This document shows, piece by piece, positions 1,708 through 63,673 of a stretch of DNA of 64,000 nt. The DNA lies in IMG/VR virus record IMGVR_UViG_3300045988_100160, positions 1 to 64,000 of that record. One strand, 5' to 3'. Within the stretch, counting starts at the first letter, position 1. Each line of letters opens with the position of its first letter. Position numbers and translations under genes: made by a program. Under the pieces are notes generated by a model. It ran no database searches, had not been told where the DNA came from, and saw only the letters and a list, made by a program, of their open reading frames with translations. The DNA comes from a virus.

Positions 1708-1769
1708 AACGTTTTATCCTTTCTAATTCTGATAATGTGGCGGTAGTGATCACTACCGCCAATATTTTC

Positions 1770-2810: not shown

Positions 2811-2831
2811 CATGGGATGATGCGGTCGTAT

Positions 2832-2843
2832 GAACATATGTTC
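2832..2843. promoter_or_regulatory. LexA-type box GAACATATGTTC
   Basis: Second exact copy of the 14-bp palindrome TGAACATATGTTCA (2831..2844). Confidence 0.55.
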
Positions 2844-3295
2844 AATCATGGGTGTTGCACCACGGTATCTCAGATGGTTAAAACAAACAGATGTTCGATT
2901 GTTTATTTCTGTGGAAGCATCCATGGTTCGTCAATAGAATAACCCATGAACACACCACAATAAACATTAATAGATAAACACATATATCACCGACACATAT
3001 ATACGTTTATTTAATACCACGACATATACAAATAAAAAATACCACCGCATAAAACGTGGACACATAACGAACGTATAATGTATAAGCATATATGCTGCGG
3101 ATGCACGATTGTTTCATGCAGGTGTTCGCCATGGTTTTCTATGCGATGGTATTTGATTTCTGTGACAACAGTAGATGAACGCATGAACATTTCCGTGTGG
3201 TGAATGGTGGTATGATTGCCTGCGTGATGTGTTTGGGATGCATCACACAATGAATGTGGTGTTTGCCATGCGTTTGCAACCTGTTGTCTATATGT

Positions 3296-3325
3296 ATGAT
3301 AACACAAGACGGTTTGTGTTGTCAA
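3296..3325 (-). promoter_or_regulatory. weak candidate promoter (TTGACA-18-TATCAT) firing into the ORF-free region
   Basis: rc of 3320..3325 is TTGACA and rc of 3296..3301 is TATCAT. No credible ORF lies downstream. Confidence 0.3.
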
Positions 3326-3404
3326 CAACCAATGTGTTTTTCTTGGGTTTTATTTTTTGAAATCTTGTTTTTTATTTTTTGGTTTTTAATTTTTTGGATT
3401 TGGG

Positions 3405-3824
3405 TCATTGGTTTTTGGTTATGCCACATAGGTCTTGAATTAGGAAGCTGTAAGTGTCAAGACATTGGATGCCAATATTGTTTGTTGACTCGTCGACAAA
3501 AACATAGATTGCATTTTTCATATATATCGTGTTTTCTGTAAAGTTGGTGACTACGCCGATATAGACATGTTTATCATTAGACCGTGCCAAAGCGATATCT
3601 CCATCTCTAAGATAACCGTATTTAGTTCTTAACGTAGCAACTGTCGGTAAATCGTCTACGGACTTCTCCACAGGTTTCCCATTGAATAACATTGTGCTAG
3701 CTTTAATGAAATTTGAAGTCTTATTTTCAGGTTTTAAAAACAATGACTTTAAACATTCGATGTTCTCTGGTGTCACTTCTAGTTTTAATTTTAGTGTTCC
3801 CATAGAGTCGTTTTTGGTTTTCAT
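3405..3824 (-). CDS. hypothetical protein (139 aa)
   Basis: ORF track 3405..3917 trimmed to ATG 3824, preceded by AGGAGG. The upstream gene stops at 3826. Confidence 0.65.
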   Translation of the reverse strand: MKTKNDSMGTLKLKLEVTPENIECLKSLFLKPENKTSNFIKASTMLFNGKPVEKSVDDLPTVATLRTKYGYLRDGDIALARSNDKHVYIGVVTNFTENTIYMKNAIYVFVDESTNNIGIQCLDTYSFLIQDLCGITKNQ

Positions 3825-12131: not shown

Positions 12132-12822
12132 TTGTTTTCTCCTGTGCATTAAAAATCCGTTGTTTGGCAACATCAAAATACATTGGGTCTAACTCAATAC
12201 CAATGAAATCTCGACCCAATTCAACGGCTGCAACACCTGTTGTACCAGAACCCATAAATGGGTCAATAATGGTATATTCTTTTGGCAGAATACCAATAAT
12301 GTTTTTCATTACTTGTAATGGCATCTGACATGGATGCACTGTTTTTTCTGCTGAGGTGTTCTTCACGATATTAATGTTCCACCAATCGTAAATCGGTGTG
12401 CCCTGTGAACCGTTTTCAATCAACCGTTTAATCCGTTTATCATTTGGGTTCTTATATGGTTGTAACACTTGTTTAAAGTCAGGTGTTACACCAAAGAACG
12501 CAATGTCTCGGTGTTGCTTGCGGTTGTTTGAATTATATACCCATGATACCACTTTAGTTGGTGGTCTGTCAATATCAATCGCAAGTTGATACAGTTGTTC
12601 TGGATAGTGAATAACAACAGATGGATGCGATGGATTGAACACCTGTTGCAACATCTGTCTATAATCTCCATCGCTCATTCTGTCGTGATAACCGTTGTAA
12701 TGATACCCAATGTTAAACGGAGGGTCTGACACGATGATATATGGTTTATTTTCCGCTTGCAATTGGGTTTTGATGGGTTGCAATATGGTTCGACAATCGC
12801 ATTGATGTAGCTCAATCATCAT
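12124..12822 (-). CDS. DNA methyltransferase, beta-class amino-MTase (N6-adenine or N4-cytosine)
   Basis: Motif IV is DPPF (VSDPPFNIGY). It precedes motif I, FxGxG (IDPFMGSGTTGVAA). Start trimmed to ATG 12822. Confidence 0.8.
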   Translation of the reverse strand: MMIELHQCDCRTILQPIKTQLQAENKPYIIVSDPPFNIGYHYNGYHDRMSDGDYRQMLQQVFNPSHPSVVIHYPEQLYQLAIDIDRPPTKVVSWVYNSNNRKQHRDIAFFGVTPDFKQVLQPYKNPNDKRIKRLIENGSQGTPIYDWWNINIVKNTSAEKTVHPCQMPLQVMKNIIGILPKEYTIIDPFMGSGTTGVAAVELGRDFIGIELDPMYFDVAKQRIFNAQEKTNE

Positions 12823-13210
12823 AGTCTTCCTCGAATAACATTTTTGCAATTTCTTCATCATAACTAAAGCCAAGTAGCCTTAAGATGTCGTCTTTGTCTT
12901 TTTCAGTAAAGTCTCTATGACCGTTTAGTTTGAGAGACAAATTTGTGAGACTAATTCCTAATAGGGATGCAACTTTACCGACACCCAAATTACGGTCTTT
13001 AAACATTCCTCGCAACATTGTGTGTCGTTCTTGGTATCGTGTTCCAATGTCTACTTTGAGTCGTGCAAGGTATGTTTTGACATCTTCAATATCTTTAAAA
13101 GTGTCATCTTCTAATACATTTTGCAACTTTGACAGCAACACCGATGTTTCTTCAAACTTCTTGTAATCTTCTTCGATTACAACTCCATTAATTCGTACAT
13201 GTGTTTTCAT
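12812..13210 (-). CDS. helix-turn-helix DNA-binding protein (XRE-like C-terminal HTH)
   Basis: ORF track trimmed to ATG 13210 (GGAGGA upstream). HTH-like segment LGVGKVASLLGISLTNLSLKLNG. Confidence 0.5.
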   Translation of the reverse strand: MKTHVRINGVVIEEDYKKFEETSVLLSKLQNVLEDDTFKDIEDVKTYLARLKVDIGTRYQERHTMLRGMFKDRNLGVGKVASLLGISLTNLSLKLNGHRDFTEKDKDDILRLLGFSYDEEIAKMLFEEDYDD

Positions 13211-13228
13211 ATATTCCTCCAATAGTTT

Positions 13229-13247
13229 GGGGCGAACGAGTCGCCCC
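13229..13247 (-). terminator. GC-rich stem-loop just after the adhesin gene (no U-tract)
   Basis: GGGGCGA-acgag-TCGCCCC, a 7-bp stem starting 9 nt after the stop at 13256. The missing T-run makes terminator function uncertain. Confidence 0.35.
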
Positions 13248-13255
13248 ATCTTATA

Positions 13256-14551
13256 TTACTTACTTAATAAATTTTCCAACATTTCAACACGTTCTTTTAA
13301 CTGTTGTAATTCATCTCGTTTAACATTTGTTGTTTTACCAACCTTAAAGTTTACAGATGCATTAGTTACAGAAGAAGAACCAAAAGACTGTCCAACGTAA
13401 AACATTACATTTTCATTCGGAGCGTAGAACGCACCCAATGCACCAGCGTTTGCATTTTTGTAATGTCCAAAGCCTGCACTAATAGAGAACTTATTATGTG
13501 CATCGAAACCATTCCAATGTAATGCTCCTAAAGCAGATACAGATGCAATAGCTGCATTGGTGCCACGTTCTAATTGGTTTACTTTATTGGTAATATCACC
13601 CAACATTTGTTGGCTTGAGTGCTCCAATGTGGTAATTCGGTTTTCATGGTTCATAGACACCTGTTTCAACGCTGAAATATCGCTTGTATGAGCGTTTTGA
13701 ACACGCTCTAGTGTATTTGTTCGTGCACCTAAATTTGTAATCGCTTGGTGGTTATCATTAATTAATGCCATTCCAGTACCAATGTCTGCCGCATTTTGAC
13801 GGATGCGATTATCAAATGTACTTACCGTTGTGCCAAGATTATAAATCTTGTTGCCGTTATTTGTAATTTCATCAATGGCTGCATACAACTGAGAACCATT
13901 GACTGCATCTAAGGAATCTGTGGTAATACGACCAGCAGACACATTTTGTAATTGTCGGTTGTAATTGTGGATTGCACTATAGGTGGAAGATTGTGTAGCA
14001 CCAAATGACACACTGGAGTTTGGACTGTCACCTGCGAACACATGAGTCGTGCCATTGATGTCCATTTGACTAAACGCAACAGGGTCAGATGTTTGAGAGT
14101 TTGTGCCAATTGCCACAGAGTTCTGTACTGGGGCACTTGCGTTGTTGCCAACAACCACAGCATCAATACCACGGACAACAGAGTGAGTACCAATGACAAT
14201 TGAACCTTGGTTGTCAACCGTGTTATTTGCACCGATTACAGTTTGTTCTTGGTGATTGCCAATGTAATTATTATAGCCAATTACAGAGGATTGATTCGCA
14301 GATGTTGTACCATTGCCACCACCTAAGATGATATTATCGTTGCCATTCACAGTATTGTCACGACCCAATACAATCGTATTAGTACCATTCACAACTGTGT
14401 TTGCACCGATTGCAACACTATTATAACCTGTTGCTATAGGGTCAACCGCAGATGGTTCTAAAGAGCCAATCGCAACTGGGTTGGCGGACACACCCATAGT
14501 TGCCATTGCTAATACTGCGGAAATAATCATAGTTTTTGTTTTGTTTTTCAT
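13256..14551 (-). CDS. YadA-type trimeric autotransporter adhesin (431 aa) with a post-anchor coiled-coil tail
   Basis: Signal peptide MKNKTKTMIISAVLAMATMGVSA. Head repeats NSVAIGANTVVNGTNTIVLGRDNTVNG. Neck motif RQLQNVSAGRITTDSLDAVNGSQLY. Stalk heptads. C-terminal beta-barrel anchor AAIASVSALGAL...SISAGFGHYKNANAGALGAFY...ASVNFKV. A further 27 coiled-coil residues follow the anchor. Confidence 0.85.
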   Translation of the reverse strand: MKNKTKTMIISAVLAMATMGVSANPVAIGSLEPSAVDPIATGYNSVAIGANTVVNGTNTIVLGRDNTVNGNDNIILGGGNGTTSANQSSVIGYNNYIGNHQEQTVIGANNTVDNQGSIVIGTHSVVRGIDAVVVGNNASAPVQNSVAIGTNSQTSDPVAFSQMDINGTTHVFAGDSPNSSVSFGATQSSTYSAIHNYNRQLQNVSAGRITTDSLDAVNGSQLYAAIDEITNNGNKIYNLGTTVSTFDNRIRQNAADIGTGMALINDNHQAITNLGARTNTLERVQNAHTSDISALKQVSMNHENRITTLEHSSQQMLGDITNKVNQLERGTNAAIASVSALGALHWNGFDAHNKFSISAGFGHYKNANAGALGAFYAPNENVMFYVGQSFGSSSVTNASVNFKVGKTTNVKRDELQQLKERVEMLENLLSK

Positions 14552-16035: not shown

Positions 16036-16855
16036 GTTCAACTGCCTTTCGCAAGTGCTCTAATTCAAGAACACGGTCGATGTGGTCGTGTACTCGCATT
16101 TGTTTCTTGTTGCGTTCGCCAGATAATTCGACAATGGATGTACCACAATCATTTGGTCGATAACCCTTGTCTGCGGAATAACCGCCCCAACCAAGGAATG
16201 AACCTGTTTGGACATCCAAGTGTTCAATTAAAGACCAAGCCTTGGCAATACGGTTGGGTTCTGCGACCATGGTTCTCTCGTAGGTTGTCTTATGTAGATG
16301 CTCGTAGAACGTAATATCGGTATGCAGCCATTCCATTTTATCAGGTTTCTTTGAGTTGTGCCACGTACCGATGACATACAGGTTCTTATTGACATTAAAG
16401 AATACCGATGCCATACCGTGGTAGAACGGAACACCTAATAGCTCAGCGAGCATCTGTTCTGGGATTAAACGGTTGTGTTTCAACGCTCGTTCATATCCAT
16501 GGTTGCCACTTCGGCAGAACAAAATACGGTCTTTAATAGGTTCTAACAAGCGATACGCCGTAAGTACTTGGTCTCCACCATGTTCCGATTGTTCAAATAC
16601 AGATGATGCGGAACTCGTTGTTGCATTGTCTGTAGAGTCACCACCGATAATTAAATACAGATTGTCAATCGTTTTAACTTGAGAAATAAATTTCTCAAAT
16701 GCTTCTCGATTGTGATAGATGTTGCCAACATGAATATCAGAAATATCTGCAATATATGCTCGCTCTGACTCCACTCGCACATCTATTTTATTCACATTTA
16801 GTGATTGTTCAGCAATATTCAAATTCGTTTCTCCATATCTTTTAAACGTGTACAT
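16016..16855 (-). CDS. calcineurin-like metallophosphoesterase
   Basis: Motifs DIHVGN, GGDSTDN and GNHGYE (D-x-H, GD, GNH[DE]). An alternative TTG start at 16822 overlaps the upstream stop as TTGA. Confidence 0.75.
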   Translation of the reverse strand: MYTFKRYGETNLNIAEQSLNVNKIDVRVESERAYIADISDIHVGNIYHNREAFEKFISQVKTIDNLYLIIGGDSTDNATTSSASSVFEQSEHGGDQVLTAYRLLEPIKDRILFCRSGNHGYERALKHNRLIPEQMLAELLGVPFYHGMASVFFNVNKNLYVIGTWHNSKKPDKMEWLHTDITFYEHLHKTTYERTMVAEPNRIAKAWSLIEHLDVQTGSFLGWGGYSADKGYRPNDCGTSIVELSGERNKKQMRVHDHIDRVLELEHLRKAVEHAKENK

Positions 16856-17472
16856 TGGTTGCCACAGAAATTACAAATGGTCTGGTTGTCACCGAATGAC
16901 TCATCGAGATATTCAACCGCTTTACAAGTAGTCATAGGTCTTTGTTCGCCTGCGTACTTATACATACGTTTAAATGTTTGTCTTGCAGAGTCGAACGGAT
17001 AATTGACCTTAATGGTTGGTGTTTTCGCTTCATAACATCTAATGCTTGGTCTCAAGACATCTTCGTCAAGTACACCATTGGAAATTAACTCAGATAAAAC
17101 TTGTTGTGCAATACCCAAGGACTTCTTGAGTCGTCTTGAGGTTAACATTTTGTATTCACCAAAATGTTTGGCAATCTCGCTGACTTTCATGCGTAAGCCA
17201 TACCGCAGCATTAATCGTTTCATACTGCTTGTGCCAATTTCTTTTCTTAGTCGCAAGAACGCATACATTAACTCCTTGATTTCTTCTTGTTCAATCAAGA
17301 TGTCCTCTGGTGAGCGTTCGTAATCAAAATCCCTGTAACGTTTCATCTTGCGTACCAATTTCTTTGATATTCGCTCTTGGTCGAATTCTTTAAAAGACAT
17401 ACGGTTATCAAACTCGTGTATCTTAAAGAGTTCATCCGAATTAGAGCAAAAGAACTCCATTAGTTTATTCAT
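16819..17472 (-). CDS. putative transcription regulator: sigma-70 region-4-like HTH plus C-terminal CxxC...C motif
   Basis: Segment RLMLRYGLRMKVSEIAKHFGEYKMLTSRRLKKSLGIAQQVL resembles sigma region 4. The protein ends with CNFCGNQC. Confidence 0.35.
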   Translation of the reverse strand: MNKLMEFFCSNSDELFKIHEFDNRMSFKEFDQERISKKLVRKMKRYRDFDYERSPEDILIEQEEIKELMYAFLRLRKEIGTSSMKRLMLRYGLRMKVSEIAKHFGEYKMLTSRRLKKSLGIAQQVLSELISNGVLDEDVLRPSIRCYEAKTPTIKVNYPFDSARQTFKRMYKYAGEQRPMTTCKAVEYLDESFGDNQTICNFCGNQCTRLKDMEKRI

Positions 17473-21864: not shown

Positions 21865-21992
21865 TTTAAAGGAGTGCACTGTATTAACGTGCCAGTGCGA
21901 ACACTAAAGATTAAGATGATGGTTTGTAGAGGATTGCAAAATGTTTTCGTCTTTTGCTTGACGCTATTGCGTACGCAACAGTAGTAGTTGTG

Positions 21993-22065
21993 TGCACCCA
22001 GCAAGATTTGAACTTGCATCACGAGAAGATGATAAAATCGTTGCTTTTCATTAAGCTATGGGTAC
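21993..22065 (-). ncRNA. tRNA-like element (73 nt) with a non-canonical anticodon region
   Basis: 7-bp acceptor stem GTACCCA/TGGGTGC, D arm GCTT..AAGC, T arm GCAAG-TTCAAAT-CTTGC. I could not fold a 5-bp/7-nt anticodon arm by eye. Confidence 0.35.
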
Positions 22066-22220
22066 ATAACGACTTGGGTTTTACCCCAAGTCAGTCAGGA
22101 GGAAAAATCATGCGTATCTCTTGGACTGTTACCCAAGACATACGATGTATGCCATCCGAATGAGAAACCCTTGAGTAACCCATTCGGTGATACAATGCCG
22201 TAACATATGTATCGTGGCTA

Positions 22221-22306
22221 TGGTGCCGTTGATAGGATTCGAACCTATGAAGCTATAAGCGACAGATTTACAGTCTGTTGTCTTTATCCATCTTGACTAC
22301 AACGAC
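22221..22306 (-). tRNA. tRNA-Tyr (GTA), class II with long variable arm, CCA encoded
   Basis: Acceptor GTCGTTG/CAACGGC, anticodon loop CTGTAAA, T arm AGGTTCGAATCCT, 86 nt. Confidence 0.8.
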
Positions 22307-22310
22307 ATGC

Positions 22311-22400
22311 TGGAGGAAAGTGTGGGATTTGAACCCACGGAACATTTCTGTTCAACAGTTTTCAAGACTGTCGCATTAAACCAGACTCTGCCAACTTTCC
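22311..22400 (-). tRNA. tRNA-Ser (TGA), CCA encoded
   Basis: Acceptor GGAAAGT/ACTTTCC, anticodon loop CTTGAAA, long variable arm, T arm GTGGGTTCAAATCCCAC, 90 nt. Confidence 0.85.
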
Positions 22401-22403
22401 ATG

Positions 22404-22478
22404 TGGCTCTTGGGATAGGACTCGAACCTATAACTCTCTGGTTAACAGCCAGATGCTCTACCATTGAACTACCCAAGA
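22404..22478 (-). tRNA. tRNA-Asn (GTT), CCA encoded
   Basis: Acceptor TCTTGGG/CCCAAGA, anticodon stem TCTGG/CCAGA with loop CTGTTAA, T arm TAGGTTCGAGTCCTA, 75 nt. Confidence 0.85.
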
Positions 22479-22641
22479 ATAAATACAACACCACTATATA
22501 CTATCGGATTTGCACTCGATATTTCCGCCCAAAAGGACTTTGTTTTACTCTTAAACTAAGTATGTAGCTGTTGCGTGGCATACATGGTAAAACATTCCAT
22601 GGCTACGTTCTACCCTTAACGGCAATGCATGAATACCGTTT

Positions 22642-22731
22642 TGGAGGATGGTACAGGATTTGAACCTGTGGTTGTTTTGCAACAACATTTCTTTAGCAAA
22701 GAAACTCAATAAGCCACTCTGACAACCATCC
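22642..22731 (-). tRNA. tRNA-Ser (GCT), CCA encoded
   Basis: Acceptor GGATGGT/ACCATCC, anticodon stem TTTCT/AGAAA with loop TTGCTAA, long variable arm, T arm CAGGTTCAAATCCTG, 90 nt. Confidence 0.85.
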
Positions 22732-22832
22732 ATGTGAGTGGGTTGAGAAAACAGGGTACCTCCGTTCTCTCTCTAACGGCAAACCAACTCATACCGACCA
22801 CCATGGTTGCGACCCATAGTGGATTTACCTTA

Positions 22833-22949
22833 TGGAGAATGTTGGATTCGAACCAACGTCTTCTACTTCGTACACTCTGAACCGTCAAATTTCTGGAGTC
22901 GAACCAGTATGTTGAACCTCATAGTGCTTTACCATTAAGCTAATTCTCC
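22833..22949 (-). ncRNA. aberrant tRNA-like gene (117 nt): canonical acceptor, D and T arms but about 45 extra nt in the anticodon/variable region
   Basis: GGAGAAT...ATTCTCC acceptor pairing, D arm GCTT-AATGGTA-AAGC, T arm GTTGG-TTCGAAT-CCAAC. The 68-nt middle contains a second T-arm-like hairpin, CTGG-TTCGACT-CCAG. Confidence 0.4.
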
Positions 22950-23313
22950 ATGTCTACCGCCATACAATCCTTGTTGTATCATTCGACCACCGAAAGATTG
23001 CAATCTCGATGTCTTATGTTCGTATACGTCTATACTCATCGGCGGTAGATGTGTATACACTCCGTTGCTTATCGCACGTCAACGACTGCGGATTTTAACG
23101 TCTGGTCTGACGGCAGTAAGAAATTCGTAGTATGGTTTTAATACTTACATTTCTACATATGATTGTTGTCGCTTTATCTAGCGTGTGCAATTATGGAATG
23201 GCACAAGACCCTAGGTTGACATCTCTAGTGATGGTTTGCAGTTGTCTCTGACATGTTTTCTCGTCACATGTAACGCCACACTTTTGACACGGTAGTCAGC
23301 ACCGTATGCTATT

Positions 23314-33227: not shown

Positions 33228-36200
33228 ATGGCAGACAACTTTATTCACTTGCATCTGCACTCACAGTTTTCCAACTATGGGATGAAAGATGCAATTAGTT
33301 CTGTAGATGGTATCATTAAGCGTATACACGAACTTGGACAACGAGGGTTTGCACTCACAGACCACAATGGTTGTTCAGGCTTGATTGATACATATGTGCA
33401 TCTACAGAAATATAACAAGAAACATGGCACAGATTTAAAACTTGTGATGGGGTCAGAGTTATATTATACATATGATGTCCACATAAAGGACAAATCATAT
33501 AATCATATCTTGTTTCTTGCGAAAAATCAAGTCGGACTTGAGAACTTGTTCAAGTTAACAAGTGAAGCACATAAACACTATTATTACAAGTCAAGATGTG
33601 ACCTTGATATGATACGCAAGTACTCAGAGGGTTTAATCTGTACATCGGCATGCATGGGTGGATGGCTTAAGGGTGATAATCGTGAGTCGTTAATTCCGCA
33701 GTTCAAAGACATCTTTGGTGACGACTTATATTTTGAAATCCATACATATCAACATGAAGACCAAAAGCGTTTTAATGCAATGGTTGCAGAAATGGGTGCA
33801 AAATATGATGTACCATTGATTGCCGCTTGTGACTCTCATTATGTGTATGAAGAAGATTACGCTTTACATAAGGCTTTCCGTGGTCGTTCTCAAGATGACG
33901 ATGAAGACCAATACTATGGTTCAAACGACTTCTTTATCCAATCGGAAGCGCAGGTATTCGACCGTCTATATCCACAATTTGGTGTTGATATGGTTGAAGA
34001 CATGGTGAAGAATACCAATATTATTTTTGACAAATGTAATACACAAGTTGATTTCAACTTGGATGTCTATCCAAAGTATGTTAAAGATGGCGATGTAAAA
34101 CCTGTGTTTTTAGATGCGTTGAGACAGGGGTATAAACAAAAGATTTTAAATCAGGTGACCCCAGAATTTAAGAAACGTGTTGACGAACGTGTCCCACATG
34201 AGATTGATATTTTGGAGCAAGTTGGTTATATGGACTATCTGTTGATTACCAAAGATATTCTCGATGCTTGTCGTGAACGTGATATTCCAGTTGGACATGG
34301 TCGTGGTTCGGTTGGAGGATGCGAGTGTGCATATTTACTCGATATTACATCTTTGGATGCTATTACAAACAACTTGTATTTTGAACGGTTTGCAAACCCC
34401 AATCGTGTATCACCCCCAGACGTTGACAACGATTGCTCTAAGGTAAGACGAGGAGAAGTTATTCAATATCTTGAAGAAAAATACAAATATGTCTATCAAT
34501 GTCGTACATTTTCCTACATGAAAGCATCTGGAGCATTAAAAGAAGCTGCACGATGTCTAGGCGTAGACCATACTATTGCAGATGCCTATTCAAAGAAAAT
34601 CAAGGATGTATCTTTTGACGATGATGAAGATTTCCATGATAACGACCTTGAGTATGCAAAACTTGATTATATAAATGATGGTAAACATCAAGAGATGTTT
34701 GAACTCGCTAAGAAGCTGGTCGGTATTATGACTGGCTTTGGGAAACACGCATCGGCAGTCATTGTTTCAAACCAAGATATTACCAAGTATTGCTCACTAG
34801 AGATGCAAAAAAATTCTCAAACAAAAGAAGAAACCTTTGTGGCATCCACAAACTTTAAACATTTAGAGTCTATGGGTTTTCTAAAAGAGGATATTCTTGG
34901 TCTTAGAACCTTGGATGTAATCAATGATTGTGTAACGATGGCTGGTGTCAAAAACAGTCTTGACTTGGCAAAATTACCTTGGGATGATAAACCTACGTTA
35001 GACTTGCTATGTAAAGGTGATACACTTGGAGTATTCCAAATGAAATCACAAGGAATGGTAAGAACTCTTAAAAGTATTGCCCCAAAGAACTTTGTCGATT
35101 TAATCGCTGTGGTTGCCCTGTATAGACCAGCGTGTATTTTAACAGGCATGTTAGATGAGTATATTGACCGCCGTAATGGTAAGCCGTTTGAGTACTTAGA
35201 TGAACGATTAAAAGAACCATTAGGTGAAACATATGGTATCATGGTGTTCCAAGAACAAATTATGCGTGTGTGTCAGATTATCGCTGGATATTCAATGGCG
35301 GAAGCAGATACGGTAAGACGTGCGGTTGGTAAAAAAGACCACGATTTAATGCAAGAGATTACGGCAGAATTTGTTGACCGTGCGGTTGCGAATGGTACAG
35401 ATAAAGATGTGGCGAAACAAATTTTAGACATGATTATTGCAGCGGCGAGCTATGGATTTAATAAGGCTCACAGTCAATCATACGGCTACATGGCATACAT
35501 AACGGCATACCTCAAGGCACACTATCCGCTCGAATTTTATGTGGCAACTATTAACTCCGAAGATGGCAACCAAGAGAAAATCTTGCCGTACATCCAAGAG
35601 ATGCAACGCAAGGGCATCAAGATATTACCACCTGACCTACGCTACAGTGAACGTGAGTGGACAGTCGAAGATAGTTCTGTGCGTGTTGGTCTTTCGTACA
35701 TCAAAGGTATTAACAAGATTGAAAAACCACACGAATATACAATAGATGCCATCTTTAGTAAATACTCTAAGTTGCAATTACAGGGTCTAGTCGGTAGTGG
35801 TGCATTAGACTTCTTGGGTAATACACATGAACTCATGGCGTTAATTCCTGAGTATAAGTCATATGATAAAGACCGCAAGAACGCTTTGCATAAAATACAT
35901 GAGTGGCAATCTAAGTTACAACAACACGAAGACACCATGTATACAAACGATGGATTGTTCTCTGATAAAGAATTAAAGTCTTTGGATAAAAAGAAACAGA
36001 ACATCGAAAAGAAAATCCAAGAATGGACAGACAAGTATAACTCTATAATGCTCATAGAACGCCCAAATTTGAGCTCTAAGGTGCCTGTGGTATCTCTTAG
36101 GTATGAATACCTTGGGTGTACGTTTGAAGACCCTTTAAAAGCATATAACACAAATTTAGCCAATGGTCGTGACGTCAAGGCAATCATTGTGTCTGATTTT

Positions 36201-36383
36201 AAAACGAAAACAACCAAGGCTGGCAAACCTATGGCATATGTATTCGACCATGTTGGCAACAAGTATGTCATGTGGTCTAACTACTTGGTTGAGTTACAGG
36301 TCGGTACAGGATATTATATCCAAGTGCGTGGCGACACAATCACAAAGGTTAAGCCATTGGAATTAAAACAAAATAACGCTTAA
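33228..36383 (+). CDS. dnaE: DNA polymerase III alpha subunit (DnaE-type, N-terminal PHP domain)
   Basis: PHP motif HLHLHSQFS, GHGRGSVGG, palm aspartates PPDVDNDC, 1051 aa. AGGAGG upstream. Confidence 0.9.
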   Translation: MADNFIHLHLHSQFSNYGMKDAISSVDGIIKRIHELGQRGFALTDHNGCSGLIDTYVHLQKYNKKHGTDLKLVMGSELYYTYDVHIKDKSYNHILFLAKNQVGLENLFKLTSEAHKHYYYKSRCDLDMIRKYSEGLICTSACMGGWLKGDNRESLIPQFKDIFGDDLYFEIHTYQHEDQKRFNAMVAEMGAKYDVPLIAACDSHYVYEEDYALHKAFRGRSQDDDEDQYYGSNDFFIQSEAQVFDRLYPQFGVDMVEDMVKNTNIIFDKCNTQVDFNLDVYPKYVKDGDVKPVFLDALRQGYKQKILNQVTPEFKKRVDERVPHEIDILEQVGYMDYLLITKDILDACRERDIPVGHGRGSVGGCECAYLLDITSLDAITNNLYFERFANPNRVSPPDVDNDCSKVRRGEVIQYLEEKYKYVYQCRTFSYMKASGALKEAARCLGVDHTIADAYSKKIKDVSFDDDEDFHDNDLEYAKLDYINDGKHQEMFELAKKLVGIMTGFGKHASAVIVSNQDITKYCSLEMQKNSQTKEETFVASTNFKHLESMGFLKEDILGLRTLDVINDCVTMAGVKNSLDLAKLPWDDKPTLDLLCKGDTLGVFQMKSQGMVRTLKSIAPKNFVDLIAVVALYRPACILTGMLDEYIDRRNGKPFEYLDERLKEPLGETYGIMVFQEQIMRVCQIIAGYSMAEADTVRRAVGKKDHDLMQEITAEFVDRAVANGTDKDVAKQILDMIIAAASYGFNKAHSQSYGYMAYITAYLKAHYPLEFYVATINSEDGNQEKILPYIQEMQRKGIKILPPDLRYSEREWTVEDSSVRVGLSYIKGINKIEKPHEYTIDAIFSKYSKLQLQGLVGSGALDFLGNTHELMALIPEYKSYDKDRKNALHKIHEWQSKLQQHEDTMYTNDGLFSDKELKSLDKKKQNIEKKIQEWTDKYNSIMLIERPNLSSKVPVVSLRYEYLGCTFEDPLKAYNTNLANGRDVKAIIVSDFKTKTTKAGKPMAYVFDHVGNKYVMWSNYLVELQVGTGYYIQVRGDTITKVKPLELKQNNA

Positions 36384-46028: not shown

Positions 46029-46062
46029 ATCTATAGTATCAAACATTCGACTTTTGTAACAC
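46025..46062. repeat. 38-bp conserved element, copy a (CTCTATCTATAGTATCAAACATTCGACTTTTGTAACAC)
   Basis: 32/38 identical to copy b (59993..60030). Confidence 0.7.
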
Positions 46063-56997: not shown

Positions 56998-58294
56998 TAT
57001 CTGTCTCTCCTTTCTCCGTAGATTTCTCTAAAGGAACATCTTGTGGGGTGGATGTCACTCGTTGTTCAATTAGAGATGATTTATATTCATCGAGCAATTG
57101 ATTGCCCTTTTGAATATCAGGGAGTTCAATACCAAGAACGCCATTTAGTTCTTGACGAGCCTCGTTGATTGTGATAACATTACCATCAACAAGTTTTCTA
57201 ACTCGTTCAACGGCATCAGCTTGTTGAGCTTTAGTAGGAGTAAACACAAAACGGAACTCGATTTTGCCACCATATCCAAGTCTATCTACGACATACTTAT
57301 TGATGGCACGTTCAAATATCTTCGCCCATGGCTTAATTGTATATTCCAACATCTCGTTGTCTTTTTCAGATGATGTAGAACGGTCATTTGAGATAGCAAC
57401 CCCAAGTCGTTCTGGTGGAATATTAAAGCATGTGGCAATGATTTGTAGTAATAACTTTTGCCAATTTAGAGATGCTGACTCGTCACCAATTGGAGATACT
57501 TGTTTTGCATCTAATTGCGTTGTACCAACAATCGCAACAGCGGATTGACCTTGGATTTCACTTTCGATGTAAACTCGAACTTTCTCGATTTCTTCTTGGG
57601 ATGCGTTTGCACCAAGATTAATCAAATACTTTGGCATCGCATTAGAGGAAATATCGTTTGCATACTCTTGTACCTCAGACAGATACTTGATATGCCTGTA
57701 TGCTTGCTCTAATGGAGAATAACCAAATTCATCATAGGTCAATTTCGTGCGTTGTAACATTGCGATTTTGTCACATTTATACCACTCTTGAACACCATTG
57801 GCGTTCTGCATGTATCTTGGTTGGTTTAAATCACCAGACCAATTTGTGACAACTTCGATTGTTTGAGCATCAATAGGGAACAAATATAAAGGTCTGTCAC
57901 GCTTGACAACCTTTTGTTCAAAAAATGCTAGGTCTAACACAATTAAATCTTCAAATAGTTTACCAATGAAATCGTAGTAGTCGTCCACAGGATTAGGTTG
58001 TTTGATGATTTCGGTTACTTTACGAATTGCTTTTTTATTTTCATTATCATCAATCGAAACAACCTCCCATGGCAATGCTAGGATGCCCTCTCGTATCTGA
58101 TTAATAGCACTTCTAGCGATAGGTGTTTTTGCCATGTTTCGTAACGCATCGACACTCAACTTAGTTTCCGTGTTTTTGCGTTTCTTATTACCCCAACGAC
58201 CAAACCATGTTTGTGTGACATTGGCAATAGTATCTCGTGTAACGAAAGCACTCATCCATGCGTAAATTTTTTCTCGTAGGTTCATCGTTTCCAA
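56990..58294 (-). CDS. portal protein
   Basis: 434 aa. Lies between the large terminase and the protease, overlapping both. Confidence 0.75.
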   Translation of the reverse strand: METMNLREKIYAWMSAFVTRDTIANVTQTWFGRWGNKKRKNTETKLSVDALRNMAKTPIARSAINQIREGILALPWEVVSIDDNENKKAIRKVTEIIKQPNPVDDYYDFIGKLFEDLIVLDLAFFEQKVVKRDRPLYLFPIDAQTIEVVTNWSGDLNQPRYMQNANGVQEWYKCDKIAMLQRTKLTYDEFGYSPLEQAYRHIKYLSEVQEYANDISSNAMPKYLINLGANASQEEIEKVRVYIESEIQGQSAVAIVGTTQLDAKQVSPIGDESASLNWQKLLLQIIATCFNIPPERLGVAISNDRSTSSEKDNEMLEYTIKPWAKIFERAINKYVVDRLGYGGKIEFRFVFTPTKAQQADAVERVRKLVDGNVITINEARQELNGVLGIELPDIQKGNQLLDEYKSSLIEQRVTSTPQDVPLEKSTEKGETDSE

Positions 58295-59964
58295 CCTTTC
58301 ATGAATGATAGTGTGTCCATTCGTTTCTTACGAATTGTACCCATCGCACCAACATTGATAGTCGATGAGTTTTCTAAGAATTTAGATATACACCGTTCCA
58401 AACAGTCAGGTGCATCATCGTGGTCTTTCGGAAAGTTCTTAAGTTGACTTTCGAGAACACGATGGTTTTTGTTAAACTTGATGTACCCCTGTTTTATCTT
58501 CGGTGCAAGCGAGCGTATTCGAGTACCCTTGTTGTCGCTCGCTGTACTACGAGCAGAAATCCAGTTTACATACAGACCCATATCAATAGCAGTCTGTTGT
58601 AATGTCTTCGAGAAGAACTCTTGGAATACGTTTTCTTCTACAATGAAACCGTCTAAACGACCATTGTATTTGTCGAGATACAACAGTATATCATTAATAA
58701 TAATATCTGGTGACCTGCGTTCAATGTCGGCTTCCAATACATATAAGTAGTTATCTACGCCACGACCGACGAATATAATCGCAGAATAATCAGATGTCCG
58801 TGACTTACCCATTGATAAATCGACAGATGCATATATCTGCTTCATCTTAGGTAAGTTCGTTTCGTTATAATAGTTAGCCTTAATCCACGACTCTTTAAAT
58901 ACTCGGCTTGCTTCGGTCATAGGATTGTTTTGATACTCGGAGTTAAATGCTTCATCATCTTGCATACGCAAAATCATGAGTTCTTGATACCAGTTATCAC
59001 GAGACAATCTCATTTTCTCTTCGTATGAACAATTAAGGTGTTCGAACAAACCAAAGTTACGACCCTCCCACATTATTTTGACACCGTCCATCATTTCATC
59101 TCGATGTTCTTCAAAATAATCAGATGCGTTCTTTGCCGCATCTGGGTCGGACAAGTCATTAAAGATTTCTTCCCATACAGTCCAACAAGGACTTTCGGAA
59201 AACGTGTATACGGCTTTATATGTTGCACGGTTCCAGTTGTTAAACTTGGAGTCGGTCAACACTTTATATAGTAATGATTCATAATGCAACACCGAACCAA
59301 CATATAAAAATACAGTTCGAGGATTGCCAATCGGCATCAATACTTTCATGAACCAATCATATAATTTCTTACGTTGGTTTTCTGTTTCTACTGCTTCGTC
59401 ATTCTCAAGGTCGTCTAAGATAACAACTTCTGGTCGAATATTGTTATAACTTGAACCACGTAAGGATTGACCGCTTGACTTTGCAAACACTTGAATTTTG
59501 TTTTTTGTAACAATCTTGTCGCTCGCCCATGTCTTATCACCTTTAAGAAGACCAAAGTCTTTTTTCAAACGTTCATTGTCTTCAAGTTCGTCTTTTATCG
59601 TTTGAATGAACTCTTTGGCTTGTTCAAAGGTATCAGATATAATCAGTATGTTCTTACGATAACCATACACGATTAACCATATAGGGAACACGACCGAGAT
59701 AATACGGCTCTTGCCGTGACCTCGTGGTGCCGCACGAACAAACTTGTTATGCAAGTTGTCAAAGTGCAGTATCATATTTTCTGCATCCCTAAACATCGAA
59801 TGATGAAAGTCGCAGAATGGAGTAGAGAATATATGGGGAAAATATGTCTTAGCGAAATGTTCCAAGTTTGTAGCACCAATATCTTTGTCAGTTGGTGTGT
59901 TATCACTTGGCTCTGTTGTCGCTCGAGATGCCCCTAGTAGCGTGTCTAAAATGTTTTCAGCCAT
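58282..59964 (-). CDS. terL: terminase large subunit
   Basis: Walker A-like APRGHGKS and Walker B VVILDDLEND, with a C-terminal nuclease-sized domain. Start trimmed to ATG 59964 (AGGAGG upstream). Confidence 0.85.
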   Translation of the reverse strand: MAENILDTLLGASRATTEPSDNTPTDKDIGATNLEHFAKTYFPHIFSTPFCDFHHSMFRDAENMILHFDNLHNKFVRAAPRGHGKSRIISVVFPIWLIVYGYRKNILIISDTFEQAKEFIQTIKDELEDNERLKKDFGLLKGDKTWASDKIVTKNKIQVFAKSSGQSLRGSSYNNIRPEVVILDDLENDEAVETENQRKKLYDWFMKVLMPIGNPRTVFLYVGSVLHYESLLYKVLTDSKFNNWNRATYKAVYTFSESPCWTVWEEIFNDLSDPDAAKNASDYFEEHRDEMMDGVKIMWEGRNFGLFEHLNCSYEEKMRLSRDNWYQELMILRMQDDEAFNSEYQNNPMTEASRVFKESWIKANYYNETNLPKMKQIYASVDLSMGKSRTSDYSAIIFVGRGVDNYLYVLEADIERRSPDIIINDILLYLDKYNGRLDGFIVEENVFQEFFSKTLQQTAIDMGLYVNWISARSTASDNKGTRIRSLAPKIKQGYIKFNKNHRVLESQLKNFPKDHDDAPDCLERCISKFLENSSTINVGAMGTIRKKRMDTLSFMKGWKR

Positions 59965-59992
59965 TAACACACCTCCTTACAGAAAATTCGTT

Positions 59993-60030
59993 CTCTATAT
60001 ATAGTATAAAACACTTTAATTTTGTAACAC
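59993..60030. repeat. 38-bp conserved element, copy b (CTCTATATATAGTATAAAACACTTTAATTTTGTAACAC)
   Basis: 34/38 identical to copy c and 32/38 to copy a. Lies between terS and terL. Confidence 0.7.
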
Positions 60031-60049: not shown

Positions 60050-60658
60050 TCAATTTTGTTGAATTTTTGCATAATTTGCCAATAAAATCTTATTATCTTT
60101 CATCTGTTCACGCACTTTATTCGCCAAAACAGGGTCTTCTTTATTAATAATATCCATAATTTCAACGATAATAGAGTTCATAGCTTGGAATGTATAAATT
60201 TTCTCTGCGACTGTTTGCATGTCCTTTAGGATAGATTGTTTTCTTGCGATATATTTCTCTTGGTCTAACATTAAGTCTTTCATACGCTTGTAAATAACAT
60301 CGGCATCCGAATAACCAGTCGCCTGTTGACATTGTAAGTCGTCAATAAAGAGTTGTATCATTTCGATTTGTGTTTCAACCATATCAAGTAAGTTCTTTTG
60401 TTGGTTATAGGTGTTAACAACTTCGGTTTCTTCCGATGGTTGCATCTCTTGGACTAAATTTGTGCGACACCAATCACCGACCATCTTAGGTGTAATTAAG
60501 ATATTCTGTAGTTCGCCCTTATGTTCTTTATTCAATTGTCGTGCGATGGCTGTGTATGACTTACCAGCGTTTCGCCAATCGGTTACATAGTCGCCGAGAC
60601 CAAAAAAGTCAATGCGGTTCTCATAACCTTTCTTACGTTTTAATGCGACTTCATTCAT
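60050..60658 (-). CDS. terS: terminase small subunit (HTH-containing)
   Basis: 202 aa, directly upstream of terL. HTH-like segment KSYTAIARQLNKEHKG. Confidence 0.6.
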   Translation of the reverse strand: MNEVALKRKKGYENRIDFFGLGDYVTDWRNAGKSYTAIARQLNKEHKGELQNILITPKMVGDWCRTNLVQEMQPSEETEVVNTYNQQKNLLDMVETQIEMIQLFIDDLQCQQATGYSDADVIYKRMKDLMLDQEKYIARKQSILKDMQTVAEKIYTFQAMNSIIVEIMDIINKEDPVLANKVREQMKDNKILLANYAKIQQN

Positions 60659-60693: not shown

Positions 60694-60722
60694 TTGACAC
60701 GATATATTTCATCATGTATTAT
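60694..60722 (+). promoter_or_regulatory. sigma-70 promoter TTGACA-17-TATTAT for the recombinase unit
   Basis: TTGACA at 60694..60699 and TATTAT at 60717..60722. Confidence 0.65.
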
Positions 60723-60760: not shown

Positions 60761-61291
60761 ATGGCTAATACAACAGAACCAATCAGAAATTTATCCAAAG
60801 TCCAAGAAATGAAACAAGCACTTGGCAACGACCGAGACAAAATGTTATTCACCCTTGGTATTAACTCTGGTCTCCGCATCAGCGACCTAGTAGGGTTGAC
60901 CGTAGATGATGTTAAACCAGAGATGGAATTGTATGAACAAAAAACAGGTAAGTTTAAACGGTTCATGTTATCCAAAGAAGTGTACGCATTGTTATGCGAA
61001 TACGCAAGCCGATGCAAGCATTGGCTGTTCCCAAGTCGCTCTGGTGACGGTCATATCTCAACTGTACAAGCGTGGAGAAAAATCAAGGCTGCATCCGTGA
61101 AATGCGGTTTAGATAACATCGGTACACACTCTATGCGTAAAACCTTTGGGTATCACGCATACCGCAAGGGTGTACCAATTGCATACCTTATGCAAGTCTT
61201 TAATCACTCCTCGGAAGCAATCACAATGCGATACATTGGTATCACAACCGAGGAATTAAATACTAAAGTTTATGCCATTATGGCTTTATAA
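60761..61291 (+). CDS. tyrosine site-specific recombinase, catalytic domain only (176 aa)
   Basis: Candidate R-K-H-R-H-Y catalytic set: GLRISDL, KTGKFKRF, HSMRKTF, NHSS, MRYIG. Only about 25 residues precede the first catalytic Arg. AGGAGG upstream. Confidence 0.8.
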   Translation: MANTTEPIRNLSKVQEMKQALGNDRDKMLFTLGINSGLRISDLVGLTVDDVKPEMELYEQKTGKFKRFMLSKEVYALLCEYASRCKHWLFPSRSGDGHISTVQAWRKIKAASVKCGLDNIGTHSMRKTFGYHAYRKGVPIAYLMQVFNHSSEAITMRYIGITTEELNTKVYAIMAL

Positions 61292-61561: not shown

Positions 61562-61576
61562 TCACAAAGCAATCAA

Positions 61577-61636
61577 CAGGGCATACATAAGTTTATATCT
61601 TATGATATATTCTTATGTATGCCCTGTTTGTGTTTC
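61577..61636 (+). terminator. rho-independent terminator (15-bp stem)
   Basis: CAGGGCATACATAAG (61577..61591) pairs with CTTATGTATGCCCTG (61612..61626), then TTTGTGTTT. Confidence 0.7.
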
Positions 61637-61932
61637 TTGGGGTTGAGTCTGTATGTCTCACCTGTATGTTGTTCTGTAGGCTCATAGGTTAGGTCTCAAA
61701 CATAATATCTGACTATAAAGCAAACACGTTAGTGTTTATTGTCGAAGACAATCCTATAGGTATATACTTATGTATTCTTTAGAGTATTCTTGTTTAGATT
61801 GCTTCGCAATACTCCTTACGGAGTGTCTTTCAAGTCGGTTTCTTAAGTTTGGGGCAAAACCCTTTTTCAAAAGCTGTTTCTTAAAACTCTTTCAAGAAAA
61901 CCATCGCTTTAAAACCTATAAGTGAAAACTCT

Positions 61933-61970
61933 CTCTATATATAGGGTAAAACACTTGATTTTTGTAACAC
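61933..61970. repeat. 38-bp conserved element, copy c (CTCTATATATAGGGTAAAACACTTGATTTTTGTAACAC)
   Basis: 34/38 identical to copy b. Lies in ORF-free DNA. Confidence 0.7.
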
Positions 61971-62366
61971 ATTTTTCATAAAATTGGATAAATATTTTAT
62001 TTTACAAGCTAAAATTTACCCCTCAAAAATGCCACTCCGCCCAGTAAACATCTGCGTTTTGAGACTTGAAAAAATTTTTTAGCTTTTATGAGTAAAAAAT
62101 GCCACATAAGTCTTAAATCGGTAAAATCCGATACATGATTTTTAACTCACGCCACACTAGGTTGGTGTCACTACACTAGGCTTACGACAGTATAATTCTT
62201 GGGTTGGACACAATTTGACCCACGTGGGATAAAATCGAACGAATGTACGTTGGAAAACACAACCATAGTATTATGACGAGTTTTCGCCAACGCCATCCTA
62301 GGGTCGTGATTTTTGGTGGAAAATATTTTGGCTTCGGCTGCAAGTTAGTCTGACTAAAAATAAAGC

Positions 62367-62390
62367 AATCACCATACTAGTATGGTGATT
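62367..62390. repeat. 24-bp perfect palindrome AATCACCATACT|AGTATGGTGATT
   Basis: Read directly from the sequence. The half-site CA(C/T)CATACTAG recurs at 62509..62523 and 62974..62989. Confidence 0.8.
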
Positions 62391-62953
62391 AACTATGTTG
62401 AAAAAGATTGTCTATACGATACACAATCCTAGTAGGATGCAACCCTAGTACCATGTCACAAACTTATAATAACGCTATACTAGGAAAACATATATCAGAA
62501 AACATAATCATCATACTAGGGTTTACGTTTTATAGAAATTACATAAGTTACCCTGTGTGCAACTATAAAAATTTCTACAAAAATTTTAAACGATTGTATT
62601 TTCGATAGACAACCCTAATTGGAAAATACGATTGTTCCATATGATGTTTCATATCTTAGACAATCAATAAGAACGATTGTTTTCTCGATAGTTTTTGCGA
62701 TTGCTTTCTACATATGTCATATGTTCGTATGTATGAAACCATAGATAAAACAAGGGTTTGTAGACCATTGTATGTTATGGGGTATGGAACATTTGTATGT
62801 GCGTGACAAGTTTGTTCATATGTGTTGACTGTGGTATGGTCTTTTGTATGGTCTTGGGTTTGTTATGATTATACCGCCCCCAGTTGAGAATGGTTCTCCC
62901 TTTTGGATATTGAAAATTTTCGATACGCCTAGGGGTGTCTCATTGGTTCATAT

Positions 62954-62965
62954 GAACACATGTTC
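62954..62965. promoter_or_regulatory. LexA-type box GAACACATGTTC
   Basis: Fits GAAC-N4-GTTC. Embedded in TTCATATGAACACATGTTCACATATG. Confidence 0.5.
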
Positions 62966-63110
62966 ACATATGCACCATACTAGGGTTAGTCAATCAATCG
63001 AATAGTATCAATGTAATAGAATATCCATTATCATTCATTCATTATCATTTGTATTCTCAATATGTAGATATCCTAGATAGACAAATGTCGATATATATGT
63101 TTGTACATAT

Positions 63111-63122
63111 GAACATTTGTTC
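63111..63122. promoter_or_regulatory. LexA-type box GAACATTTGTTC
   Basis: Fits GAAC-N4-GTTC. Embedded in ACATATGAACATTTGTTCATGTG. Confidence 0.5.
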
Positions 63123-63638
63123 ATGTGTCAGCTAATGGTTTACAGTTGGGTAACATATGAGCAGATACTCATGTATGCACCATATGCATTATACTCATGA
63201 TTTTTAGTAATGTTTGTTATTGGTGTTTGGCTGGTGGTGGTTACAATTGTATTTTATAAAATGTATTTTGATTGGGTATATCAATAGGGTTTGAAAATTC
63301 TGTAGTACACATCAAACCCAAGTCCCCACCCTAGTAGCCTACATACGCACCACCACACACGCACAATAGACATATACATACGTCTATACATCTGTTACAT
63401 ACATTAATTATACATATGTATAAACCAAATAAAAATACAACGGTATACATCAATCGTATATAACCGTTATATTTTGCGTTGTATGGTCTTTTGTTTTCGT
63501 TGCATATGTTTATATTCGAAAGTCTTTAAACGCACCATATAACTCAAATAACGCAATTGTATTTTCTCATTTAGGTAAACATATTGAGAATACCAGCGTA
63601 TATATGAATGGTTGTTCATATGATAGATATAAATATAA

Positions 63639-63663
63639 GCGGTACAGAATTGATCTGTACCGC
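63639..63663 (-). terminator. hairpin terminator after CDS 63674..63997
   Basis: GCGGTACAG/CTGTACCGC 9-bp stem with T-rich flanks on both strands. Confidence 0.6.
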
Positions 63664-63673
63664 TTGTTATTGT

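Follow-up and report, generated by a model that had tools for sequence, protein, structure and literature searches.

A family of CTAG-centred sites in a conserved non-coding region of an unstudied phage family, a candidate protein-binding array

What might a dense cluster of CTAG tetranucleotides, gathered around a perfect 24-bp palindrome, be doing in phage DNA that carries no genes? This question is raised by IMG/VR virus record IMGVR_UViG_3300045988_100160, of which we analyzed positions 1 to 64,000 (hereafter the window), a 64-kb stretch that makes up most of a ~68-kb phage genome with a G+C content of ~37-38%. A preliminary description of this DNA had pointed to the CTAG cluster between positions 62153 and 63340 and had proposed a dedicated DNA-binding protein as its reader, with a recombinase core site, a partition site, an origin or a packaging region as candidate roles. 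Our analysis confirmed that the motif family is real and located in non-coding DNA, and suggests, tentatively, that it is a set of binding sites for one dimeric protein in a cis-acting control region, and probably not a recombination site.

CTAG enrichment and a shared flanking motif

The region from 62153 to 63340 contains 12 CTAG tetranucleotides (starts at 62157, 62176, 62298, 62377, 62429, 62445, 62480, 62516, 62929, 62980, 63073 and 63331), and every sequence quoted in the preliminary description was found where that description had placed it. The expectation of about four sites given there agrees with a mononucleotide model, which predicts 3.8, while a second-order Markov model predicts 5.2 (P=0.008). 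Elsewhere in the window, CTAG occurs at 1.13 per kb, a density that would give 1.3 sites in the same interval (Poisson P=2e-8), and no other 1-kb bin holds more than 4. The enrichment also held against shuffled controls.

Furthermore, the sequences flanking CTAG are shared. The hexamer ACTAGG/CCTAGT is present at 8 of the 12 sites of the array versus 7 of the 71 CTAG found elsewhere, and the flanks of the array conform to the motif wCAYCAyM-CTAG-K. When half-sites were scored with a leave-one-out weight matrix built on the 8 nt flanking CTAG, 13 of 24 in the array exceeded 4 bits, compared to 4 of 142 elsewhere (Mann-Whitney P=2e-7). An unbiased k-mer comparison of the non-coding region with coding DNA likewise returned ACTAGG, TACTAGG and CATACTAG as the most enriched 6-, 7- and 8-mers, respectively. 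The claim that nearly all sites share one context was thus upheld insofar as the flanks form a genuine motif; the site at 63073 does not belong to the family and is most plausibly a coincidence, and that at 62929 fits it only marginally. Four sites (62157, 62298, 62429 and 62445) are imperfect dyads themselves, and the family can therefore be written as CAYNAyM-CTAG-KrTNRTG. Sites with a single good half carry that half on the same side in seven of seven cases. The motif is restricted to the non-coding region; a dispersed promoter motif was considered and rejected, as every ACTAGG outside the region falls inside a gene.

The strongest member of the family is the palindrome AATCACCATACTAGTATGGTGATT, which is perfect, as previously described, and is unique in the window even when three mismatches are allowed. 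It consists of two 9-bp arms, AATCACCAT and ATGGTGATT, around the centre ACTAGT. The reported recurrence of its half-site was verified, as CATCATACTAG at 62509-62519 and CACCATACTAG at 62973-62983. Furthermore, the 13-mer of the palindrome arm has 8 matches with at most three mismatches in 0.82 kb of the array versus 14 in the other 63 kb.

Conservation of the region and of its sites among relatives

Searches of 50,697 deposited phage genomes in near or distant mode returned no relative at the DNA level, and the large terminase subunit TerL is at most 36% identical to those of deposited phages. In IMG/VR we found about 30 relatives, mostly of 64-73 kb and originating from human-associated metagenomes. 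They were sorted by their non-coding region, which is 84-95% identical to the window in group 1 (L001, L002, L004-L007 and L028), ~66% identical in group 2 (L009-L012), and alignable only in patches in group 3 (L013-L029). Two further relatives reside in bacterial DNA: L041, a distant relative (TerL 64% identical), sits within a 232-kb contig of Veillonella sp. 3310, and L206 is a prophage within a 167-kb bacterial contig. Because L041 is embedded in a Veillonella contig, the host is concluded to be Veillonella, and the window represents an uncharacterised family of Veillonella phages of ~68 kb that occur in human oral and gut metagenomes. A literature search on Veillonella phages yielded nothing relevant. 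Comparison with L002 indicated that the genome map is circular.

The DNA that contains the array, designated NC1 (Table 1), is genuinely non-coding. It contains no conserved open reading frame (ORF) of at least 60 codons, and no Rfam family matched it at gathering score or at E<=1. Small conserved ORFs were rejected since substitutions among relatives show no 3-nt periodicity; as a coding control, the last 60 nt of the neighbouring gene showed a strong codon periodicity (1/39/5). Hidden genes using a reassigned stop codon, which would make the excess of TAG only apparent, were also rejected, as no long ORF appeared upon recoding of TAG, TGA or TAA. The same place is gene-free for 2-2.6 kb in all relatives, including L041 and L206.

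Conservation of the palindrome was then assessed across relatives. Both arms are identical in 10 of 11 relatives of groups 1 and 2, while the DNA around them is only ~66% identical between the two groups. The centre varies (ACTAGT, CCTATG, CTTAGA, TCTATA, TCTATG), with only the middle TA invariant; across eight distinct sequences, 8 of 9 arm pairs are fixed and 4 of 6 central bases vary. In the remaining relative, L012, the arms are changed symmetrically (C>T and G>A) to AATCATCAT and ATGATGATT, the former being identical to the natural half-site variant at 62506. This compensatory change is a single event and statistically weak, as 73 of 500 shuffles do as well. Since the arms remain invariant while both the surroundings and the centre diverge, the pattern points to base-specific protein contacts rather than a mere hairpin. 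The left flank of the palindrome (TGACTAA...C) is conserved in groups 1 and 2, as is the right flank (Table 1). In groups 2 and 3, the small hairpin has a different stem, yet TAGTCnG is kept beside the CTAG-centred palindrome of each group.

Table 1. Features of the CTAG array and its surroundings (window coordinates; relatives and groups as defined in the text).
Feature	Coordinates	Strand	Sequence	Remarks
Site 1, imperfect dyad	62150-62170		GCCACA-CTAG-GTTGGTGTCA	CTAG and right half kept in 7 of 7 group 1 relatives, left half variable; homologue ccacCTAGGTTG in every group 3 relative
Site 2	62169-62186		CACTACA-CTAG-G	Left half 4.7 bits; CTAG changed to CTAT in L002 and L005
Site 3, dyad	62291-62311		CGCCATC-CTAG-GGTCGTGATT	Both halves 6-7.8 bits; right arm conserved and resembling the palindrome arm; CTAG lost in 3 of 7 relatives
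Small second dyad or hairpin	62345-62357		TTAGTC-T-GACTAA	9 nt left of the palindrome; read from the sequence
Perfect 24-bp palindrome	62367-62390		AATCACCATACTAGTATGGTGATT	9-bp arms around ACTAGT
Right flank of the palindrome	62391-62400		AACTATGTTG	Nearly invariant in groups 1 and 2
Site 5	62419-62442		ATACACAATC-CTAG-TAGGATGC	CTAG retained in 6 of 6 relatives, both flanks altered (e.g. ATACTAGGTGG); CACAATACTAT in group 2
Site 6	62435-62458		GCAACC-CTAG-TACCATGTCA	CTAG retained in all group 1 and group 2 relatives; flanks variable
Site 7, half-site	62470-62487	+	TAACGCTATA-CTAG-G	Fully conserved in group 1
Site 8, half-site	62506-62524	+	AATCATCATA-CTAG-GGTTT	14 of 15 bases as in the left half of the palindrome; counterparts TATACTATGGTTT in group 2 and CATCtTcCTAGGGAA in group 3, where often palindromic
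75-nt block in mid-array	62851-62925		CTTGGGTTT..ACCGCCCCCAG..GAGAAtggTTCTC..CCTTTTGG..AAATTTTCGAT	Nearly invariant in 26 sequences of three groups
Site 9, weak member	62922-62939		CGC-CTAG-GGGTGTC	GGGGTGTCT conserved, CTAG not
Site 10, half-site	62970-62988	+	ATGCACCATA-CTAG-GGTTA	ACTAG (62979-62983) unchanged across all 26 aligned sequences, from three groups; flanks vary
CTAG at 63073	63066-63083			Both halves below 0 bits; absent from all relatives
Site 12	63324-63341	+	CCCCACC-CTAG-TAG	Left half 5.6 bits; CTAG in 4 of 7 group 1 sequences
NC1, gene-free region with the motif family	61629-63634			Between two terminator hairpins ending convergent transcription units
Left border hairpin	61575-61628			25-nt arms, 92% complementary; follows plus-strand recombinase and membrane-protein genes; conserved in groups 1, 2 and 3
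Right border hairpin, resembling a bidirectional terminator	63635-63667			Follows a minus-strand operon of small genes
Late-promoter-like element	61940-61970	-		190 nt from the first CTAG site; array upstream on the minus strand
Tyrosine recombinase, 176 aa, catalytic domain only	60761-61291	+		PF00589 (8e-24), phrog_216 (5e-54)
TerS, small terminase subunit	60050-60658			Helix-turn-helix-like N-terminus
TerL, Mu-like large terminase subunit	58282-59970			Portal gene downstream

Within group 1, the sites fall into three classes. Those at 62480, 62516 and 62980 are fully conserved, those at 62157, 62429 and 62445 keep CTAG despite mutations in their flanks, and those at 62176, 62298, 62929, 63073 and 63331 are dispensable. 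Three sequences, ccacMCTAGGTTG, CATCnTMCTAGGG and A(T/C)ACTAGG, are common to all three groups. CTAG density in NC1 reaches 3.4-5.4 per kb in group 1 versus 1.5-2.0 per kb in structural-gene DNA from the same loci, and 2.9-4.4 versus 0.6-1.1 per kb in group 2. Group 3 showed no enrichment (~2.0 per kb in NC1, with one locus at 3.4, versus 1.4-2.1 per kb). Group 3 also lacks the AATCACCAT palindrome and carries at another position, by a TAGTCTG hairpin, the palindrome TTTTATGA-CTAG-GTCATAAT (TTATGA-CTAG-GTCATA). L041 has the CTAG-centred dyad TTTGA-CTAG-TCGAA, and in L206 five copies of sCTAGTTT are packed into 155 nt of the gene-free region, which is 2.6 kb long there. CTAG-centred dyads or clusters in groups 1 to 3, L041 and L206 indicate that they are an old feature of the region, with flanks that are specific to each lineage.

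NC1 contains other elements alongside the CTAG family. No other non-coding element of the phage family is as well conserved as the 75-nt block in mid-array; five genomes carry GATAA/TTATC in place of its GAGAA/TTCTC, and no conserved RNA fold was predicted for either strand. The octamer ACGATTGT occurs 18 times in the window versus 3.5 expected, on both strands and both inside and outside genes, with three copies within 90 nt of NC1 (62590-62680) and many copies in the group 3 non-coding region. GAAC-N4-GTTC dyads, of the Gram-positive LexA or Cheo-box type, are found six times as exact matches in the window versus 0.73 expected, five of them in the two ORF-poor regions (909-920, 2468-2479, 2832-2843, 62954-62965 and 63111-63122). 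They are often extended to CATATGAACAnnTGTTCATATG, and the one at 2466-2481 is a perfect CGAACATCTGTTCG. These dyads may mark SOS-controlled promoters in a phage that has no recognisable CI repressor. The CTAG family itself was rejected as a LexA operator because it does not match GAAC-N4-GTTC, such dyads standing separately alongside it at 62954 and 63111. The second ORF-poor region (266-3440, ~3 kb) is reached after ~3 kb of small genes lying outside the window; it shares with NC1 the GAAC dyads and a AATTTTCGAT motif, not the CTAG family, and has repeated CGTGGACA boxes at ~2630-3066.

Candidate roles of the array

We tentatively favour, with a confidence that falls a little short of even, the interpretation that the CTAG sites form a family recognised by a single dimeric, sequence-specific protein and lie in a cis-acting control region. 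This protein would be encoded by the phage or possibly by the host, and would recognise a half-site of ~11-14 bp, (A/T)(A/T)TCAyCAyM-CTAG. Two half-sites placed head to head would make the perfect palindrome the strongest, dimer-binding site; four further sites would act as imperfect dyads and the remainder as single half-sites. About ten sites spread over 1.2 kb could then assemble a higher-order complex through cooperative binding and looping, whose job would be to mark a replication origin or a switch region upstream of the late-promoter-like element at 61940-61970. Invariant arms, recurrence of the arm in single copy, a variable centre and weaker dyads argue for protein sites, a combination that a simple hairpin does not predict. 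The general idea of a dedicated DNA-binding protein with one dimeric site and scattered half-sites, as put forward in the preliminary description, is therefore supported by the reality of the motif, the invariant arms and the retention of CTAG; its version as a recombinase core with accessory sites is not.

An origin or a late switch is the likeliest role for such a complex because of the late-promoter-like element, the repeat families and the AT-rich DNA nearby. The 31-nt element TATAGnrTAAAACACTTnAnTTTTGTAACAC occurs three times in the window versus 0 expected, always on the minus strand (46032-46062, 60000-60030 and 61940-61970), and the first two copies immediately precede late genes, namely the gene starting at 45984 and TerL. 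Leftward of the 61940-61970 copy, ~300 nt are 91-100% conserved and are followed by the hairpin at 61575-61628, an arrangement that looks like a late promoter with a terminated leader, by analogy with lambda pR'-tR'. NC1 is insulated by terminators on both sides and is rich in several repeat families, and the DNA at 63-64 kb, beside the array, is the most AT-rich of the genome (GC 0.31). The phage encodes its own DnaE, DnaB and DnaG and has no recognised origin. As in an iteron origin, ~10 motif sites are present in 1.2 kb of non-coding DNA beside an AT-rich stretch; no initiator gene for such an origin was recognised by Pfam, PHROGs or NCBIfam.

Several observations weigh against this interpretation. 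Domain searches of the flanking genes recognised no DNA-binding domain other than those of the recombinase and TerS, a DnaA-box cluster is absent, and the replication genes lie ~25 kb from the array. The spacing from site to site has no helical regularity. On the minus strand, the palindrome was picked up by a terminator scan and could act as a hairpin instead. Group 3 has only 3-4 CTAG sites, and this low number, together with the different arms and place of its palindrome, implies that the array is not universally required.

The alternative that the palindrome works as a DNA cruciform or an RNA hairpin, the other CTAG sites being unrelated to it, is unlikely in our estimation. In its structural form, a tandem of two hairpins on the minus-strand transcript would act as a weak intrinsic terminator or, in the manner of put or nut, as an antitermination signal that precedes the late promoter and the strong terminator at 61575-61628. 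The terminator scan does flag 62391-62366 on the minus strand, with the tail CTTTATTTTT, and the fold is predicted at -13.6 kcal/mol (z = -2.6); both arms changed in a compensatory manner in L012, and in group 3 and L041 a CTAG palindrome with other arms lies by a TAGTCnG hairpin with another stem, as if the architecture were kept and the sequence were not. However, only one pair covaries, in a single sequence; elsewhere the arms do not change. Just three pairs of the AU-rich stem are G-C, and its base is closed by A-U pairs. Group 2 has a weak U-tract and group 3 has none, no promoter is evident upstream of the hairpin, and the single-copy recurrences of the arm at 62298, 62506 and 62970 would be left unexplained. 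We hold it to be very unlikely that most CTAG sites have no dedicated function, arising where no coding constraint acts against TAG and where CTAG is by chance part of a few unrelated conserved elements, for instance -10-like (T/C)ATACT boxes. This view would agree with the Markov-2 expectation and with an order-3 model that reproduces all 12 sites, with a genome-wide count of 83 CTAG against 79 expected from trinucleotides, which reveals no special avoidance, with TATACT at 62476-62481, which was scored as a -10 hexamer, and with the loss of the five dispensable sites in close relatives. Composition does not account for the shared 7-8-nt flanks, the dyads, the retention of CTAG amid mutating flanks, the invariance of ACTAG in 26 sequences or the CTAG cluster of L206, and the ORF-poor region at 266-3440 has only 1.9 CTAG per kb, in other contexts.

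A recombination site is a further reading. The palindrome would be the core site of the adjacent 176-aa tyrosine recombinase, in the manner of lox, dif or FRT, and would be used to resolve multimers, to invert DNA or to integrate, with the half-sites as accessory or pseudo-sites; we regard this as quite unlikely. The 9-6-9 layout, with conserved arms and a freely varying spacer, is suitable, and a drifting spacer is expected if both recombination partners are copies of the same site. The recombinase gene lies 1.1 kb from the palindrome; a promoter of its own (TTGACA-17-TATTAT at 60694-60722) precedes it, and its ribosome-binding site is strong. The protein aligns with residues 110-272 of Xer proteins and lacks an N-terminal core-binding domain, and its catalytic R, H-x-x-R, H and Y residues are all invariant. 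Furthermore, the first base of IMG/VR contig L007 coincides with that of the palindrome. Yet recombinase and palindrome are not conserved together: this palindrome is missing from group 3, L041 and L206, where the enzyme is 88%, 55% and 61% identical, respectively. Since relatives retain the enzyme without the palindrome, the recombinase is a poor candidate for the protein that binds the CTAG sites. The centre of the group 3 palindrome (3 nt) is too short for the spacer of a tyrosine recombinase, and the ACTAGT spacer, itself palindromic, would abolish directionality. All 11 relatives compared are collinear, without inversion. A metagenome scan for recombinant junctions used an overly degenerate pattern with 16 specified bases and returned mostly chance matches; among those listed, three further contigs all showed the normal context. 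In the bacterial contigs holding L041 and L206, the region by the recombinase is uninterrupted, with no prophage junction. Other contigs end at unrelated hairpins, which makes the L007 end look like an assembly break; a fixed genome terminus at the palindrome was rejected on the same grounds. The target of a protelomerase (telRL type) was also rejected, since there is just the 176-aa recombinase, most relatives have a centre that is not palindromic, and relatives lie inside large bacterial contigs. A variant in which the CTAG-centred dyads are recombinase substrates recognised by their CTAG centre and shape, not by arm sequence, is most improbable. The dyads in question are AATCACCATA-CTAG-TATGGTGATT in the window and those of group 3 and L041, with their different arms; the variant is likened to integron attC or CTX attP, where a folded or symmetric site is used. 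If true, enzyme and dyads would make up a minimal recombination system conserved beside the terminase genes of a Negativicutes phage family. The mini tyrosine recombinase is probably not explained by the palindrome. Its family comprises over 1,500 proteins of ~180 aa from Firmicutes and Negativicutes, and in distant prophages it keeps its position beside the terminase genes; a gene for an 84-aa membrane protein follows it.

Packaging is a further possibility that we find rather improbable. The array would be the pac or cos region in which packaging starts, with TerS, through its N-terminal helix-turn-helix, binding the CTAG sites and positioning the first cut. The array does lie upstream of TerS and TerL, two phage DNA methyltransferases could modulate a palindromic tetranucleotide, and 9 of 19 truncated flanks, including those of five near-complete genomes, end 3.2-4.5 kb upstream of TerL (~63200-64500) in IMG/VR contigs. 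These ends, however, differ in sequence, lie ~0.3-1 kb to the right of most CTAG sites, are often at hairpins and fall in the most variable part of the region. This suggests that assemblies tend to break in this variable, repeat-rich DNA, or else hints at imprecise physical ends. Furthermore, between the array and TerS lie a strong terminator and the genes for the recombinase and the membrane protein, and pac sites are usually short for Mu-like headful terminases, to which TerL belongs. As for a partition site, another candidate of the preliminary description, it is unlikely because no ParA/ParB was present in the scanned proteins; neither ParA/ParB nor ParM/ParR was found among the early-region (concatenated) and flanking-gene proteins, a scan that did not cover the late structural genes.

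Genome context and comparison with known systems

Nearly all genes of the window are on the minus strand, and the phage genome holds ~5 kb of non-coding DNA in all. The replication set comprises DnaE, a DnaG-type primase, a DnaB-type helicase and SSB, and genes for ThyX, dUTPase, RusA, two DNA methyltransferases (of C5 and N6/N4 type), an HTH-like protein (12812-13249), a sigma-like protein (16819-17472) and a cluster of transfer RNAs (tRNAs) were also recognised. The DnaE gene (33228-36383) is 0.8-1.2 kb longer in several relatives (L057-L068), where matches span 3.9-4.4 kb versus 3.15 kb in the window, which suggests the insertion of an intein, an intron or a homing endonuclease. In the tRNA cluster (21990-22950, minus strand), Rfam reported six tRNA-like matches and ARAGORN four; the Rfam match at 22833-22949 is 117 nt long and may be an intron-containing or otherwise unusual tRNA. 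The gene at 13256-14551 (minus strand) encodes a YadA-like trimeric autotransporter adhesin in which head, stalk and anchor domains were recognised, and is a probable lysogenic-conversion gene for Veillonella.

A conserved site family offers a handle on the origin, late switch or packaging signal of these phages, and the 24-bp palindrome could be used as bait to find the protein that reads it. Replicons and genetic tools could follow for Veillonella, a genus for which few exist.

Arrays of short sites are known from several systems, with which we compared NC1. Packaging analogues include the R sites of lambda cosB and P1 pac, which has seven TGATCA/G hexamers in 162 bp whose cleavage is controlled by Dam methylation. 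Like P1 pac, the array repeats a short palindromic core near terminase genes in a phage that encodes methyltransferases, but it spans 1.2 kb instead of 162 bp and no defined DNA end maps to it. Tyrosine-recombinase cores such as loxP (13-8-13), dif (11-6-11) and FRT (13-8-13, with spacer TCTAGAAA) resemble the palindrome in geometry only, through inverted arms, a 6-bp centre, conserved arms with a drifting centre and a recombinase gene 1.1 kb away. They differ in that the palindrome is not co-conserved with the recombinase, its recombination products were not seen, its centre is symmetric here and the enzyme lacks a core-binding domain.

CTAG-core operators are exemplified by that of TrpR (GNACTAGTNNACTAGTNC), and arrays of the ribbon-helix-helix type by the WATCACW heptads bound by omega of pSM19035. 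As in these, CTAG with its flexible TA step is central to our sites, the AATCAC arm resembles the omega heptad and orientations are mixed. In contrast, no TrpR-like or omega-like gene was found, the CTAG sites do not form contiguous heptads and no promoter is evidently overlapped. Origins with iteron or dyad arrays include lambda ori, the ori/PER of Streptococcus thermophilus and lactococcal phages, and oriP of Epstein-Barr virus (EBV), which combines a dyad-symmetry element with a family of repeats. No initiator gene or DnaA boxes accompany the CTAG array, its spacing is irregular and group 3 has only a few copies, unlike in iteron origins. It nevertheless shares with them ~10 related sites of 13-24 bp, one strong dyad with weaker or half sites, and a non-coding stretch by AT-rich DNA in a phage that has its own helicase, primase and polymerase. 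Judged from its sequence and these likenesses, the array is best filed as a putative cis-acting binding-site array in the non-coding control region of an unstudied phage family.

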